From a virus, in the IMG/VR virus record IMGVR_UViG_3300020724_000005: a stretch of DNA of 64,000 nt; one strand, given 5' to 3'. A program made the translations under genes and the position numbers. Of the stretch, positions 8,015-13,046 are shown in pieces (the first letter of the stretch is position 1; each line of letters opens with the position of its first letter). The notes under the pieces were generated by a model that saw nothing but the letters and a program-made list of their open reading frames with translations, did no database searches and was not told the DNA's origin.

Positions 8015-9400
8015 TTACTTGGAAAGTTCAAAGAATTTCTTACTCAGTATGGATTTCTCTTCAAAAGTCAGACTAGAGCTGTTAGAGGTTTTGAAAGCGT
8101 TGTTCGTAGCTGCCTGCATTGCGTGTATCTCTTCTTCTGTTAGCTCTGTCTCATCTATCTTTATCGTACCGTTGTCCGTGTCGATCATCGCATTGTACGT
8201 CATACCGTCTTGTCCATATCGATTTTTCATGATGTGCACTCTACCTGTCTTGTTGAGTTTGTCTGCTCTCTTTCTGGACAGAGACAGTATGAAGTCTGCG
8301 ATCATGATCTTGTTGTACGATCCTGCTGCCTTGTCACCTTCTACGATGTCATCCTTTGCCCCAGCCCTGTTCACCTGAGACACAGACCATACGGGAATGT
8401 TCAGCTCTCTTGCCATGCCTTTCACCGCGGTGTACACGTCATCTATCTCGTCCTTTACTTCTCCTCCGACCCTTTTTGACTTCAATAGGTCTATGTAGTC
8501 GATGATGATCAGATCAGGTTTGTGTCCCATGTCGGTGCACTTCCTTATGTGAGACTCTATCTTGTTGACTGTGGTCTTGCCCATTGGGAACTCAGCTATC
8601 GTCAGTCTGCCTGGTAAGTTTGCTACTGTCTCTTCTACCTTGCTACGATGCAGGTGGACTTCCTTGAAACCTATGCCGGTGAACACAGAATCGTACCTCT
8701 TGCCTGTGTAGATGTCTGAGAGCTCTAGCGTGTAGTGGTTGACAGTGAGCGCCTGCTTGACTGCCTCAGCTCCTATGTTGACCAGAAACCAAGACTTGCC
8801 TGAGCCTGGTCCTCCGAATATTATGCCAAGGTCTCCTCTTCCAAGTCCTCCCATGAGATGATCGCTTATCTTTGGCCATGGAGTAGGCACTGCCCTTCTG
8901 TCGTCTTCTCTGTACCTCTGCTCTATGTCTTGCAAATACTCGTGTCCTACGTTCTTGTCTGCACCGGCTTTTAACGCAGAATCTATCATGATCCTTATGT
9001 CTTCAAACTGGCCTTTGGAAAGCAGATCTACGGAATTGAGTAGCGCCTTCTTTAATTGCTGGTTCTTGCAGAAGCTTGAGAACTCCAGTTCTATGTACTC
9101 CTTGTCTTCGTTCGCCGTCTTTAACGCCTCTTTCAACTGCTCTGCTACCGAGACCCTGAGGACCTCGTTGTCTATCTTTTTGACTTCTATCTGAAGATAT
9201 TCTAGTGACGGTGTGGTATGATATTTGTAATAATACTTTAGAATGTCTTTGACTATCCACTGTGACGCCGGCGAATCGAACATCTCTGGCTCTACAACGT
9301 CGTGTATCGTCTGTAGGAACTCTTTATGACGTAAAAGTGAAGCAAGAACTTTTATTTGAAATCCACTTCCATACGCGTTGAGCGTGTTTAATTGTGCCAT
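8015..9400 (-). CDS. replicative DNA helicase (DnaB / T4 gp41-like)
   Basis: Walker A GGPGSGKSWFL, Walker B LIIIDYIDLL, and SQVNRAG. I chose ATG 9400 (MAQLNTLNAYG) so the gene does not overlap the upstream HEG. Confidence 0.85.
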   Translation of the reverse strand: MAQLNTLNAYGSGFQIKVLASLLRHKEFLQTIHDVVEPEMFDSPASQWIVKDILKYYYKYHTTPSLEYLQIEVKKIDNEVLRVSVAEQLKEALKTANEDKEYIELEFSSFCKNQQLKKALLNSVDLLSKGQFEDIRIMIDSALKAGADKNVGHEYLQDIEQRYREDDRRAVPTPWPKISDHLMGGLGRGDLGIIFGGPGSGKSWFLVNIGAEAVKQALTVNHYTLELSDIYTGKRYDSVFTGIGFKEVHLHRSKVEETVANLPGRLTIAEFPMGKTTVNKIESHIRKCTDMGHKPDLIIIDYIDLLKSKRVGGEVKDEIDDVYTAVKGMARELNIPVWSVSQVNRAGAKDDIVEGDKAAGSYNKIMIADFILSLSRKRADKLNKTGRVHIMKNRYGQDGMTYNAMIDTDNGTIKIDETELTEEEIHAMQAATNNAFKTSNSSSLTFEEKSILSKKFFELSK

Positions 9401-9407
9401 AACTTTA

Positions 9408-10127
9408 TTATATATTTGGTTTTTTATATTTGCACTTATCAAAATGCCACTGAGTCATTCCGTTATTTCCTCCAATTTTATTACAATGCGGACATTGTAT
9501 TTTTGGATTTTTTATTCCTAATCTATTAGTATTTCCTATTTTAGATATGCTCAATTTTCTTTTATGTTCTTCTGATTTAGATTTTCCCTTAAGAGCTCTG
9601 CTAATATTTGCCTTCTCTAATTCTGATTTTACTCTATTTTTTTGACCTTTAGAAATTGATTCTCTATGTTGTAAAGATAAACATATCCCTAATTTAGATT
9701 TTCTTATATTTAATTTAGTTTCTTCTGATCTTACTTTTCCCGTATTCGATTCTTTCATCTTTTTTTTAGTATCATCAGAAACTAAATGGCCTTTTCTGGA
9801 TAATCTATATAATCGTTTTGTTTCTTCAGAATGTTTAAAACCAAATTGACCTTGTCCACCATCTGTCATATTAACTAAAGGTCCCAATTTAAGATCTGCT
9901 CTTCCATAGAATATAATCCAAAATTTTTCTTTTTCACAGGCTTCTTCCCAAGTTAACCATTCTTCTGACATAATTTCTACTTTATATTCTGTAAGATTAA
10001 TCACATTATTCCAATGAATATTTCTGTTCTTTTTTGAATAAGATCTTTTATAGTTTTTATCTGATCCTATTCCTATATAAAAAACCTCATTCTTGTCTAG
10101 TCTTATATGACGATACACATATGCCAT
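9408..10127 (-). CDS. GIY-YIG homing endonuclease with NUMOD3-like repeats and a C-terminal CPHC zinc finger
   Basis: MAYVYRHIRLDKNEVFYIGIGSD; repeats HSEETKRLY, SDDTKKKMK, SEETKLNIR, SEEHKRKLS; C-terminus CPHCNKIGGNNGMTQWHFDKCKYK. AT-rich. Confidence 0.85.
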   Translation of the reverse strand: MAYVYRHIRLDKNEVFYIGIGSDKNYKRSYSKKNRNIHWNNVINLTEYKVEIMSEEWLTWEEACEKEKFWIIFYGRADLKLGPLVNMTDGGQGQFGFKHSEETKRLYRLSRKGHLVSDDTKKKMKESNTGKVRSEETKLNIRKSKLGICLSLQHRESISKGQKNRVKSELEKANISRALKGKSKSEEHKRKLSISKIGNTNRLGIKNPKIQCPHCNKIGGNNGMTQWHFDKCKYKKPNI

Positions 10128-10137
10128 AAAATAAAAA

Positions 10138-10232
10138 TGGTCCAAAGTGACAAAGAGCCTGCATGCTCTCTATCTCAAAGGACCAATAAGTTCTATTATA
10201 GATAACTCATGCAGGAGCTTCTATCTATAATA
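10138..10232 (-). promoter_or_regulatory. structured HEG leader (copy 1): two hairpins with complementary loops enclosed by a long-range helix
   Basis: Hairpin S1 pairs 10194..10204 with 10222..10232. Its loop CTGCAT is complementary to loop ATGCAG of hairpin 2 (stem 10154..10158 with 10165..10169). The outer helix pairs TGGTCC (10138..10143) with GGACCA (10180..10185). Confidence 0.6.
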
Positions 10233-10237
10233 AATAT
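10230..10237 (-). promoter_or_regulatory. GATATTTAT(A/T)A-type motif copy
   Basis: ATAAATATC overlaps the 5' arm of leader hairpin S1, 102 nt upstream of ATG 10127. Confidence 0.4.
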
Positions 10238-11133
10238 CAGGAAATACTTGCTAAATACTTAAAGTTTGTGTATAGCCACGAAGGTAGGTTTGTGATGCTC
10301 TGTCCCAGTTGATCTTCGTTATACATCTCTGTAAACTCTGTTGGATAGTAGTCCTTCTTTGGGTTGCCCATCATCTGGTCTATCTCCTCTTGTGCCTCTG
10401 CTGGTATGTTAGGCTCGTCTAGGTCCATGAGCTTCTTGTTGATCTCTAGCTGGCTTCTGAAGTCGTAGATCTTTTTGAGCATTGCAACATCGCCGTCCTT
10501 GCACTTCTCTATGACATGCTCTAGACTGATAGTAGCACTTTTTCCTAACTCTGGAAAGTGTTTAAGCAAAGTCTTGATGCCTAATCCCTTTACCCCAGGA
10601 ACGTTGTCTCCTTTGTCGCCAAGCAGCACCTTCTGGGTTAGAAAGTTGTGAGACGTCACTTCGTACTCGCTCAAGACGTCTTTTGGAGAATAGAACTTCT
10701 TCTTTGTAGGTGAGTATATGCTGATCCTGTCCGATGCAAGCTGAAGGTAATCTCGGTCCGAAGACATGATGGTCACCTCTTTTCCTATGCGCTTTGCTAT
10801 GTATCCTATGACATCGTCTGCCTCTATCTTGTCTATCGATAGCAGATCTATGGGAAGACATTTGAGGTAGTCCACGAGCCTCAGAAGCTGGTTCTTGATG
10901 GCATCAGACTCCTCTTCTTGGGAATCGAACATGTCCCAGTTTGTGATTCTCTTTATACCCCTATTTGCTTTGTACTCAGGATAGAGGTAACGCTTATTTG
11001 TTGAGCTACCGCGGCCATCAAATACTACTATGACACGTGTTGGTCTTATCAGTCTCATCCCATATGCCATCGACTTGAGAAACCCAGTTAGAGCTCCTAT
11101 GTGCTGTCCAGCTGGGTTCACGTGCTGGATCAT
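10237..11133 (-). CDS. flap endonuclease / 5'-3' exonuclease, main segment (as listed in the ORF track)
   Basis: VVFDGRGSSTNKRYLYPEYKANR, EADDVIGYIA, SSDRDYLQL, LLGDKGDNVPGVKGLGIKT. The N-terminal DG strand is missing from this ORF and lies upstream, across an in-frame TAA. Confidence 0.85.
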   Translation of the reverse strand: MIQHVNPAGQHIGALTGFLKSMAYGMRLIRPTRVIVVFDGRGSSTNKRYLYPEYKANRGIKRITNWDMFDSQEEESDAIKNQLLRLVDYLKCLPIDLLSIDKIEADDVIGYIAKRIGKEVTIMSSDRDYLQLASDRISIYSPTKKKFYSPKDVLSEYEVTSHNFLTQKVLLGDKGDNVPGVKGLGIKTLLKHFPELGKSATISLEHVIEKCKDGDVAMLKKIYDFRSQLEINKKLMDLDEPNIPAEAQEEIDQMMGNPKKDYYPTEFTEMYNEDQLGQSITNLPSWLYTNFKYLASIS

Positions 11134-11157
11134 CGCGAAGGATCGGAGAAAGTTGTT

Positions 11158-11166
11158 GAGTTAAAG
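11158..11166 (-). other. candidate recoding site CUU-UAA-CUC inside the flap-endonuclease reading frame
   Basis: The minus strand reads GGT CTT TAA CTC AAC, with TAA at 11161..11163. The frame is conserved on both sides (KVFIVDGL * LNNFLRSFAM). Confidence 0.5.
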
Positions 11167-11265
11167 ACCGTCGACTATGAAAACCTTTGAATTCAGGCTT
11201 AAGTCGACGGTCTGTGTATTATTTTGTGAAAGATCATTTATCATTTCTGCATATCTACTATTCAT
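11164..11265 (-). CDS. flap endonuclease 5' segment (34 codons), in frame with 10237..11133
   Basis: My own translation gives MNSRYAEMINDLSQNNTQTVDLSLNSKVFIVDGL. KVFIVDG is the canonical first catalytic Asp strand of FEN/5'-3' exonucleases. It is too short to appear in the ORF track. Confidence 0.6.
11165..11213 (-). other. 11-bp GC-rich hairpin inside the FEN 5' segment
   Basis: AGACCGTCGAC (11165..11175) pairs with GTCGACGGTCT (11203..11213), with a 27-nt loop. Confidence 0.6.
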
Positions 11266-11279
11266 ATTCTACTATAGAT

Positions 11280-11843
11280 TTAATTTTTATATTTACAATT
11301 ATCAAAATGCCACTGGATCATATTACTCTTATTTGCTATTTTTTTACAATGCGGACATTGGGCCAAAGGCCTATTTTTAGCAGATTCACTTTGTGCAATT
11401 TTAGTTTTTTCTGATGTTTTTAATTCTTTATTCCACGTATTCATTCCAATGAAAAATGATCCTGAATTTACTTTATGTGGAAATTTTTTATCTTTATTCC
11501 ATGGAATTCTATTTTTAATACTTTCAATATAGCATTGTTTAGCTTCTACTGATATTCTTATACTATGTCTACCTGTATTTTTATCTTTAATGCACATTAA
11601 ATGAAAAGCATATGTTAATTTTTTATTTTCAGGAAAACTTCTATGTAATAACCAGTGCGCTAATATATGCTCTCTAATAGTTAATAAAACTATATTTTTA
11701 TTGTTTGTATTTCTTCTATCACCAATTCCTCCCAAACATATTGGCACTATGTGATGAGACTCGTAATAAACCTCTTTATTTTTTGTTCTTTTCTCCAATT
11801 TACATTTGCAGACTAATCTATTATATATTTTTAAGTAATCCAT
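11280..11843 (-). CDS. HNH homing endonuclease with a C-terminal CPHC zinc finger
   Basis: MDYLKIYNRL...YYESHHIVPICLGG...NIVLLTIREHILAHWLL; C-terminus CPHCKKIANKSNMIQWHFDNCKYKN. I chose ATG 11843 by analogy with the paralogue at 45814. Confidence 0.85.
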   Translation of the reverse strand: MDYLKIYNRLVCKCKLEKRTKNKEVYYESHHIVPICLGGIGDRRNTNNKNIVLLTIREHILAHWLLHRSFPENKKLTYAFHLMCIKDKNTGRHSIRISVEAKQCYIESIKNRIPWNKDKKFPHKVNSGSFFIGMNTWNKELKTSEKTKIAQSESAKNRPLAQCPHCKKIANKSNMIQWHFDNCKYKN

Positions 11844-11852
11844 AAAATAAAA

Positions 11853-11953
11853 TGGACTCATTGAAGTCAAAGGTCGGGCAATGACCAATGATTCTAGAGT
11901 CCAATAAGTTTATTATAGATAGTTAATTGCCCTAACTTTCTATCTATAATAAA
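11853..11953 (-). promoter_or_regulatory. structured HEG leader (copy 2)
   Basis: Hairpin S1 pairs 11909..11922 with 11940..11953 (14 bp). Its loop GGGCAAT is complementary to loop ATTGCCC of hairpin 2 (stem 11872..11875 with 11883..11886). The outer helix pairs TGGACTC (11853..11859) with GAGTCCA (11897..11903). Confidence 0.6.
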
Positions 11954-11956
11954 TAC
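11949..11956 (-). promoter_or_regulatory. variant motif copy (ATAAATAC)
   Basis: It sits in the same position relative to leader hairpin S1 as the copy at 10230, 105 nt upstream of ATG 11843. Confidence 0.3.
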
Positions 11957-11963
11957 TTGATTT

Positions 11964-13046
11964 TTAAGAATCTTCAATATCAAATATATCATTTTTTGAT
12001 GGATCCTCTTCTTCTACAATATCAAATATCTCAGAACCTAGCGCCTTTATCCACTCATGCGAATATTCATTTTTATATTTACTTATCGCTGATGGAGAAT
12101 CATCAATAAAACCATGCACTGTCATTATAACTTTGCCTACAGCTGTAACTCCAGTTATGTGATTTTTATCGCATGAAATTCTAGTTCTCTTAGCAAATTC
12201 CACGTCTTTTCCATTTTTTGTAGCTTTTATTTTATTAGTCCCCGCCTTTGAAATATTCCCGAAAGTGATTACAAGAGTAGAGTCAAACCACATAGTATTA
12301 CCTCCTTTATTTTGTAAAGTTGGTTGTCCCATTGGATTATCTGGTTTTGCTACCCAAACTTTATTTATTGCTACAAGTGTATTGGTGTAGGGTTGGCTCT
12401 CCTTTCTCGACATAATGATACGTTGATTGATGAAGTTGCCAAATTGAGTCGACATAGCACCTGCAGCCCACTCATTATTATTAGTGGATTTTTCTATGCT
12501 CAGACGACAAGGTATAGACCCCACCGAGTCCCACAGAAAGCATATGTCATACGGTAGATTGCCTTTCTTCTGCTCGTCTAAGATGTCTGCCATAAATCCC
12601 GCCACGTCCTCTACGCACTGCATCTTTTCCCTGTCTACGTATATGAAGAAGCCACTGTAATCTACCACTTCTCCTGTTGACTTATCGACGACCTCATCAA
12701 ATTGTAAACCCATTGACCTTGCGTGCTCCCAAGACCATTTCATCTCGGTAACTATAAACACTGGGAGTATGCCCATCTTTTGAGCTTGCACTGCTGCTTC
12801 TAATAGCGCAGTAGTCTTGCCAGTATCTGAGTGTCCTCGTAGTAGAGTGATGTGTCCTATCGGTATGCCAGGGATCTGAAGTGTATCACTGAAAGCCTTG
12901 GAGAGAGGTATCCACCTCGTCTCCTTGAACTTTACAGATGTGCTTGATAGGTTCTTGGACTTCTTGAATTTGTCCAGATTGAATTCGCCTTTGATGGCTG
13001 TAGAGAGAGCCCCATTGAGGCTCTCTTTCTTTTCTGATTTTGCCAT
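11964..13046 (-). CDS. RecA-superfamily recombinase/ATPase (UvsX/RadA-like)
   Basis: Walker A GHSDTGKTT, Walker B-like ICFLWDSVGS, 360 aa. It lies next to the SSB gene. Confidence 0.55.
   Translation of the reverse strand: MAKSEKKESLNGALSTAIKGEFNLDKFKKSKNLSSTSVKFKETRWIPLSKAFSDTLQIPGIPIGHITLLRGHSDTGKTTALLEAAVQAQKMGILPVFIVTEMKWSWEHARSMGLQFDEVVDKSTGEVVDYSGFFIYVDREKMQCVEDVAGFMADILDEQKKGNLPYDICFLWDSVGSIPCRLSIEKSTNNNEWAAGAMSTQFGNFINQRIIMSRKESQPYTNTLVAINKVWVAKPDNPMGQPTLQNKGGNTMWFDSTLVITFGNISKAGTNKIKATKNGKDVEFAKRTRISCDKNHITGVTAVGKVIMTVHGFIDDSPSAISKYKNEYSHEWIKALGSEIFDIVEEEDPSKNDIFDIEDS

Follow-up and report, generated by a model that had tools for sequence, protein, structure and literature searches.

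A flap endonuclease gene interrupted between matched leucine codons: a candidate natural stop-hop in freshwater phages

Introduction

Naturally used translational bypassing is known from very few systems, namely gene 60 of phage T4 with its relatives and the byp elements of yeast mitochondria. Hopping over a stop codon between matched codons has been established experimentally in synthetic constructs, such as the Escherichia coli stop-hops of Weiss et al. 1987 as reviewed in PMC5009743, with no natural case known as of that 2016 review. Here, we analyze a stretch of 64,000 nt from IMG/VR virus record IMGVR_UViG_3300020724_000005 (the window, to whose whole length all positions refer), in which the gene for a flap endonuclease (FEN, a 5'-3' exonuclease) is broken by one UAA in the context CUU UAA CUC. 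Within ~60 nt the locus lines up a hairpin, CUU, the stop, and CUC, which makes it a compact candidate for a natural stop-hop and a site that could reveal the minimum needed for a ribosome to hop, and whether pairing of the exiting mRNA pulls the message forward.

The locus shares with the synthetic stop-hops a stop codon between matched codons, where re-pairing of the peptidyl-tRNA would decode 9 nt as one amino acid in frame, and a predicted product two residues shorter than that of read-through. In contrast to these engineered, unstimulated, and low-level events, it is a natural site, it falls in a catalytic motif, and a strong hairpin lies directly 5' of it. It also resembles the +1 site of prfB (RF2), in which a P-site CUU precedes a stop followed by C; one variant of our locus, L099 (L numbers are our labels for related loci and contigs), reads exactly CUU UGA C. 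On 70S ribosomes, forward slippage at CUU UGA is stimulated by a G+C-rich 12-bp hairpin placed just 5' of it (PMC6321510); there, as might be the case here, the mRNA moves forward more readily when a duplex directly precedes the site. Unlike in prfB, a +1 shift would be unproductive here, since it meets a stop within 5-10 codons and only a +6 landing restores the protein, and there is no Shine-Dalgarno-like sequence.

The T4 gene 60/MobA system (bioRxiv 10.1101/2022.08.31.505936) is similar in having a take-off codon followed by a stop and a matched landing codon, but also in its genomic setting: an insert beside a gene for an HNH homing endonuclease, in a coding stretch that is highly conserved, replacement of the neighboring coding sequence by a divergent version, loss or replacement of the endonuclease in some cassettes, and lateral transfer between related phages. 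In gene 60, stem-loops formed on the exiting mRNA have been proposed to drive forward bypassing (bioRxiv 10.1101/2024.12.09.627546; 10.1101/2022.08.31.505936). Our locus differs in several respects. The gap is 6 nt rather than 50 nt, the hop would be in frame, a take-off stem-loop 3' of the codon is missing, and by eye we see no KKYK-type nascent-peptide signal in the N-terminal peptide. Moreover, the gene encodes a FEN instead of a topoisomerase and is not split by the endonuclease, which is a module separate from the insert. Three marks of the gene 60/MobA family are thus absent, that is, the 50-nt gap, the nascent-peptide signal, and an endonuclease and insert forming one mobile unit. We therefore do not place the locus in that family, although the analogy remains useful when considering a mechanism for the site and a reason for its existence. 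As for the byp elements of Magnusiomyces capitatus mitochondria (PMC5009743), they too are short inserts in essential genes rendered harmless by bypassing. However, they are 27-55 nt long, numerous, and dependent on a mitochondrial translation system of a special kind, which has an unused A-site codon, while here there is a single 6-nt insert and a bacterial ribosome.

Results and Discussion

The FEN gene is one reading frame with a single break

The FEN gene lies on the minus strand in a single frame that runs from an ATG at 11265 through GGT CTT TAA (TAA at 11163-11161) CTC AAC to an ATG at 11133 and a stop at 10237. The sequence through the break is AAG GTT TTC ATA GTC GAC GGT CTT TAA CTC AAC AAC TTT CTC CGA TCC TTC GCG ATG (the last at 11133), which translates as MNSRYAEMINDLSQNNTQTVDLSLNSKVFIVDGL, a stop, and LNNFLRSFAM. 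A sequence-only reading of this DNA had claimed that the frame is broken by a single UAA in a CUU-UAA-CUC context, and this can be read directly, as can the ATG at 11265. Upstream of the break, the 5' segment (11161..11265, minus strand) consists of 34 codons and the stop, MNSRYAEMINDLSQNNTQTVDLSLNSKVFIVDGL followed by TAA, and encodes strand 1 with the catalytic Asp32. Downstream, the FEN body (10237..11133, minus) is a 298-aa open reading frame (ORF) that begins MIQHVNPAGQ at an internal Met and matches Pfam families PF02739 and PF01367. This Met is M44 of the joined protein, an ordinary conserved residue of the RSFAM motif found in all uninterrupted homologues. Between the two, the nine codons from CTC to GCG (11134..11160, minus) form a linker, LNNFLRSFA, which contains no in-frame start codon and encodes the helix-1 N, F, R, and F residues that are invariant in the family. 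Gene callers split FEN at this point, in every pipeline, into a 34-aa ORF and an N-truncated enzyme.

The joined protein is a member of the FEN family. PF02739 (5_3_exonuc_N) matches it over residues 27-200 with an E value of 9.5e-31, PF01367 scores 33.7 bits, under its 40-bit cut-off, and it could be aligned to the Taq, T5, and T4 5' nucleases. Since profile position 1 of PF02739 is matched at residue 27, only the sequence upstream of the stop encodes the catalytic N-terminal strand, and the called ORF 10237..11133 indeed misses the catalytic-Asp strand, as had been proposed. Likewise, no in-frame start separates the stop from M44, so a product with the invariant N/F/R/F residues requires that the stop be passed. 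Instead of an unbroken frame from the strand-1 Asp to the helix-1 Arg, the gene has the TAA and 6 extra nt in between, and the Asp-to-Arg spacing is canonical solely when 6 nt are skipped. No second FEN gene is present in the 64-kb window.

A 6-nt insertion creates the stop and its flanking codon

A scan of viral contigs yielded 80 related loci, and ~75 close homologues were compared at the junction. Relative to all uninterrupted alleles, DNA alignment identifies an insertion of TCTTTA (11162..11167, minus; placement ambiguous by 1-2 nt) among the codons of the catalytic VDG-LNNF motif, the window reading GACGG-TCTTTA-ACTCAAC where the others read GACGG-ACTCAAC. Every uninterrupted homologue has D-[GSA]-L-N-x-F, with a single Leu between D[GSA] and N-x-F, and the closest ones (L003-L005, L010-L015, L017, L019, and L020, 74-91% identical) read KVFIVDGLNNFLRSFAM, which is the predicted product of a hop. 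Omitting either CUU-UAA or UAA-CUC, and thus counting Leu-stop-Leu as one Leu, yields the homologue sequence exactly. This spacing, which had been deduced from an alignment with Pol I, is borne out by the ~75 homologues and by gap-free alignments of the joined hop product across the junction with the Taq and T5 5' nucleases; the joined protein fits the family without the extra residues, and no homologue has a spacing longer by two residues.

With this one insertion, the gene gained the CUU codon, its stop, and the final three base pairs of the hairpin described below. The proposed take-off codon CTT (11164..11166, minus) is its product, the in-frame TAA (11161..11163, minus), read from the sequence, is followed by C, and beyond it come CTC, the proposed landing codon (11158-11160, minus), and AAC, at which decoding would resume (11155-11157). 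CUU and CUC, which flank the stop, are both readable by one tRNA-Leu. By our own estimate, a random stop-bearing in-frame hexamer at this site has a 3-6% chance of ending up with matched flanking codons. L099, which has the same cassette, reads GGT CTT TGA CTT AAT AAC, that is, three changes in 9 nt: the stop is retained as TGA, the flanking Leu codons have become identical, and the Leu and Asn changes are synonymous. Three pattern scans of viral contigs for an insert-free ancestral cassette or other stop-bearing lineages returned only L099, plus an unrelated chance match (L115). As for the origin of the insert, we considered a template switch, which on inspection would account for TCT and not for TTA.

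A strong hairpin abuts the interruption

Just upstream of the stop, the mRNA can fold into a hairpin (11165..11213, minus) with a perfect, G+C-rich 12-bp stem, AGACCGTCGACT paired with AGTCGACGGTCT (arms 11202-11213 and 11165-11176). Its 3' arm ends on bases 1-2 of CTT and thus abuts the proposed P-site codon. The sequence-only reading had noted this hairpin and its overlap with the first two bases of CUU, both of which are real, with a stem of 11 bp where we find 12. The 25 nt within the stem comprise internal loops of 4 nt and 1 nt, a 6-bp inner stem, and an 8-nt apical loop. Folding of the 81-nt region gives -26.4 kcal/mol, with z = -7.4. By contrast, the hairpin is absent from the six uninterrupted alleles that we folded, which fold no better than shuffled sequence (z -1.4 to +1.4), and both arms are specific to the interrupted allele. 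Nowhere else in the window is there a perfect, G+C-rich inverted repeat that reaches 11 bp with no more than 60 nt between its arms. In L111 and L112, an AG to CC change (Q18P) removes the outer two pairs of the stem, leaving 10 bp and -21.9 kcal/mol; L016 likewise retains 10 bp. Variation in the carriers L099, L111, and L112 keeps the stop, the Leu codons, and a stem of at least 10 bp, in what is a tiny sample of cassettes near-identical throughout. A search of the region against Rfam for an intron or known RNA element gave no match at E values up to 1 in 9000-13000. An intrinsic terminator was ruled out by inspection, since the stem encloses 25 nt and is followed by just three U. The interrupted FEN frame, the insertion, and the hairpin are therefore all confirmed, and the initial observation is strengthened.

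The interrupted allele is carried by two phage lineages

We found the interrupted 5' cassette on over 20 contigs, which derive from more than 12 samples; the sequence upstream of it is of four kinds, and the FEN body downstream of two. From the ATG to TAA CTCAACAACTTTCT, the cassette is identical in L006-L009 and L016 (viral contigs), L091 and L096 (metagenome contigs), and L100-L114 (JGI, ENA, and Logan assemblies). Presence of the same 6-nt insertion in these independent assemblies, from more than 12 samples, excludes the base-call error that the sequence-only reading had kept in mind. Two of the contigs, L100 (ENA) and L114 (JGI), are independent assemblies of the window lineage, 99.9% identical to it and both with the stop. 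The other carriers form a second, L006-type lineage, whose FEN body is strongly diverged from that of the window (pS 0.71, pN 0.11, for synonymous and nonsynonymous differences respectively).

While the bodies differ, a 5' cassette at 11147..11288 (minus) is 100% identical between the window and the L006-type allele, with its right breakpoint between 11161 and 11146. The first mismatch is at 11146, at most 15 nt beyond the stop, and the four differences in the linker are all synonymous. Since the cassette is identical and the FEN bodies are diverged, it must have moved between diverged phages by recombination. As judged by these comparisons, the insertion belongs to a ~140-nt 5' cassette recombining among related freshwater phages, at a site where homing endonucleases repeatedly insert. 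Among 5.8 billion proteins, both bodies occur only as 298-aa calls (one of which, P0024, is by itself on 22 contigs), no version of either body with an intact start was found, and full-length FEN proteins come no closer to the two bodies than 90.6% and 85.5% identity. A 78-aa N-terminal query in the protein search returned one protein and was uninformative. The 298-codon body is intact in every carrier, with no further stop or frameshift.

How the interrupted gene might be decoded

A stop-hop from CUU to CUC helped by the hairpin is the reading that we favor, tentatively and at just short of an even chance. It would be the only single decoding event that restores the canonical enzyme, and the site has the known ingredients: the stop lies between codons readable by the same peptidyl-tRNA, both as CUU UAA CUC in more than 20 contigs and as CUU UGA CUU in L099. 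We infer the occurrence and efficiency of such a hop, as well as the role of the hairpin in it, from sequence. The ribosome would pause while peptidyl-tRNA-Leu pairs with CUU in the P site and UAA occupies the A site, and the tRNA would unpair from CUU, which forms a G:U wobble pair with a GAG anticodon. The mRNA would then shift forward by 6 nt, possibly helped by zipping of the hairpin as its 3' arm exits the ribosome, and landing on CUC would, by standard wobble rules, swap the wobble for a Watson-Crick pair. Decoding would resume at AAC, 9 nt having been read as one Leu, to give ...KVFIVDGLNNFLRSFAM..., the canonical FEN sequence. The expected geometry is compatible with this. With CUU in the P site, the 3' arm would span about -10 to +2 and be held inside the ribosome, while the inner hairpin would end ~14 nt upstream and leave the 5' arm free, so that the outer stem could zip only if the mRNA advances. 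The predicted junction peptide is VFIVDGLNNFLR for a hop and VFIVDGLXLNNFLR for read-through.

In its fullest form, the proposal would be that this is the first naturally used in-frame stop-hop, driven by a hairpin re-forming behind the ribosome, which would let the phage carry a 6-nt insert in the catalytic-site codons of FEN. The insert might be kept for destroying the target of a circulating homing endonuclease, an immunity link that is conjectural in itself, and the locus would be a minimal, independently evolved counterpart of mobA/gene 60. We consider this possible, but distinctly short of an even chance. If a hop does take place, gene finders and pseudogene filters discard functional genes of this kind.

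Several observations weigh against a functional hop. Unstimulated stop-hops in E. coli are low-level (bioRxiv 10.1101/2024.12.09.627546), and a prfB-like +1 slip at CUU-U would be a competing event that reaches a stop after 5-10 codons. The perfect hairpin could be obtained by one template-switch mutation without selection, L111 and L112 have lost its outermost two pairs without a compensating change, and the TGA variant is known from a single contig. Since the carriers are very close relatives, their intact ORFs say little on selection since the insertion. In the L006-type lineage, the FEN body has 3 segregating sites in 897 nt (two synonymous and one nonsynonymous), for a nucleotide diversity (pi) of 0.0013 versus 0.0108 in DnaB, and the low-diversity tract covers ~1.3 kb from the M44 ATG, including FEN and the first ~300 nt of DnaB, which points to a block shared recently and not to constraint. 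In the window lineage, as compared with L114 and L100, three of the four mismatches over ~5.7 kb are in FEN, at positions 10300, 10421, and 10432, and all are nonsynonymous (Q278H, L238R, and K234N), with one other mismatch in ~4.8 kb of flanks; small as these numbers are, they suggest relaxed constraint. Finally, an extra 2-nt deletion breaks the FEN 5' segment in L016 (~1240-1250). This contig comes from a 48-sample co-assembly, and the same dinucleotide, at the foot of the 5' arm of the hairpin, is AG in most contigs and CC in L111 and L112, so the deletion may be a co-assembly artefact of this polymorphism.

As the main alternative, the allele could be null or near-null, the insertion inactivating FEN and being tolerated since the 5' nuclease of host Pol I can remove primers. 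The allele would then have spread through recombination or co-conversion by the homing-endonuclease hot spot, or because an endonuclease target was destroyed, the matched codons and the hairpin being by-products of mutation. Mutations in rnh leave T4 viable. The interrupted block is young and apparently recently spread, as seen in the contrast in diversity with DnaB (0.0013 vs 0.0108), its recombination breakpoint is sharp (at most 15 nt beyond the stop), the window lineage has three FEN polymorphisms that all change the amino acid, and L016 has a second lesion. Against this, both lineages are known only with this allele, on more than 25 contigs, no body has acquired a further stop or frameshift, and L099 altered three bases at the site and still kept the stop, Leu, and Asn. 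A dead allele seems to us somewhat unlikely, although it deserves to be taken seriously; it would be a clear case of a defective replication gene spreading in a wild phage population beside a homing-endonuclease hot spot.

A ribosome that terminated at the UAA might also re-initiate at the AUG at 11133, 27 nt downstream, producing an N-truncated FEN with or without a free 34-aa peptide, that is, a split or altered-function protein. The AUG is near the stop, the two ORFs are precisely those that gene callers predict, and PMC11194080 describes spontaneous 70S sliding and re-initiation on polycistronic mRNAs. We think this unlikely, because the product would be without strand 1, the catalytic Asp32, and the helix-1 N/F/R/F residues, M44 is an ordinary conserved Met of all uninterrupted homologues, and LNNFLRSFA is not rescued by any in-frame start.

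Read-through of the UAA by a near-cognate or suppressor tRNA, which would add two residues (VDG-L-X-L-NNF), is less plausible still. A stop followed by C is reported to be a weak termination context in E. coli. However, extra residues at this point are found in no homologue, the D-to-R spacing being equal in Taq and T5, and the TGA of L099 would require a different suppressor. TAA ends 33 of the 53 long ORFs in the window and is therefore, as the commonest genuine stop, not reassigned. We found a tRNA gene neither in the window nor in 18 related loci, a search that covered only 64 kb of a phage genome of ~150 kb and so leaves read-through some room. Reassignment of the stop or a suppressor tRNA were both rejected on these grounds, and frameshifting was rejected as well, since the +1 frame stops after 5-10 codons and a -1 slippery heptamer is absent. 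Lastly, that the stop is an error of sequencing or assembly, or that a defective genome happened to be sampled once, is refuted by the independent assemblies from more than 12 samples and can be set aside.

Homing endonucleases repeatedly insert at the RecA|FEN junction

The gene order gp32-like, RecA-like, FEN, DnaB is common to Flavobacterium phage immuto and Microcystis phage Mel-JY01, both of which have no endonuclease genes there. In the window, a free-standing HNH-type homing endonuclease gene (11280..11888, minus) lies between the RecA-like and FEN genes. Its product matches phrog_655 (E 2e-34) and the HNH family phrog_12434 (E 5e-9), while a Pfam search gave no match, and the gene ends 14 nt before the ATG at 11265, as the coordinates and PHROG matches confirm. 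No similarity to MobA is apparent, although the two proteins were not compared directly. The RecA|FEN junction is a recurrent insertion site. The HNH gene is found there in the window, L100, L005, L016, L111-L113, and L081 (47% identity), many L006-type contigs have instead a 192-aa ORF with no Pfam or PHROG match (3421-3999 in L006), L008 (3789-4004) and L099 (~240-450) have a 71-aa remnant of this ORF, L015 has an insert of ~600 nt, and ~70 relatives have nothing.

The HNH element is a clean indel of 677 nt relative to L007-type genomes (11283..11959, minus), with a 7-nt repeat, TAAAAAT, at its flanks and the cassette outside it. The stop codon of the HNH gene is just outside the element, in flanking sequence. 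Part of the element is an HNH leader with a 14-bp inverted repeat (11909-11953, minus). L005 has the same HNH gene (98.5%) and an uninterrupted FEN gene, while L007 and ~15 other contigs of the L006, L007, and L008 types have the insert without the HNH gene. Together with the clean indel, this identifies the endonuclease and the insert as separate neighbors, the insert being present even in related phages that lack the HNH gene. Consequently, of the resemblance to the mobA/gene 60 cassette that had been suggested, what stands is a mobile cassette at a recurrent homing-endonuclease site, and what falls is a joint HNH and insert unit, since the two are separable in L005 and L007.

An A+T-rich block comprising the 3' half of the RecA-like gene and HNH (11310..12500, minus) is ~100% identical to L005 and, on this identity, has moved as one piece. 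The PHROG matches, this shared 1.2-kb block, and the clean indel between conserved genes are what is expected of a free-standing HNH endonuclease gene with co-transferred flanks. The G+C content of the RecA-like gene is ~0.33 in the 3' half versus 0.46 in the 5' half, and the 3' half together with HNH looks like a co-conversion tract carried with the endonuclease. We looked for the HNH target site by comparing L081, which has the gene, with relatives that do not, and found no cluster of changes at the site; the synonymous changes of L005 at the insert site are also present in L020, which has no homing endonuclease gene.

A second free-standing homing endonuclease gene, of the GIY-YIG/NUMOD3 type by Pfam and PHROG, lies between FEN and DnaB (9408..10145, minus). 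Both endonuclease genes are preceded by a common leader, ATATTTATTATAGATAGAA-(loop)-TTATCTATAATA(G)AACTTATTGG (11886-11975 and 10143-10240, minus), with a perfect A+T-rich inverted repeat of 14 bp or 11 bp and no Rfam match, which may be a promoter or translational control hairpin travelling with the endonuclease genes. The two proteins also have a common C-terminal module, CPHC..(N/G)..M(I/T)QWHFD(N/K)CKYK (HNH at 11280-11370 and GIY-YIG at 9408-9500, minus), and the GIY-YIG query matches the HNH C terminus at 56-66% identity, which suggests shuffling of a single DNA-binding domain between nucleases of different classes. In the L006-type genomes, diversity rises sharply beyond the low-diversity tract, including an 11-site mosaic patch at +1305 to +1342, which places a recombination block boundary inside DnaB. 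Downstream of DnaB, a ribonucleotide-reductase-like gene (5594-6880 in L101, and in other L006-type loci) has a weak intein-splicing Pfam match, and may thus harbor another selfish element in the same replication module.

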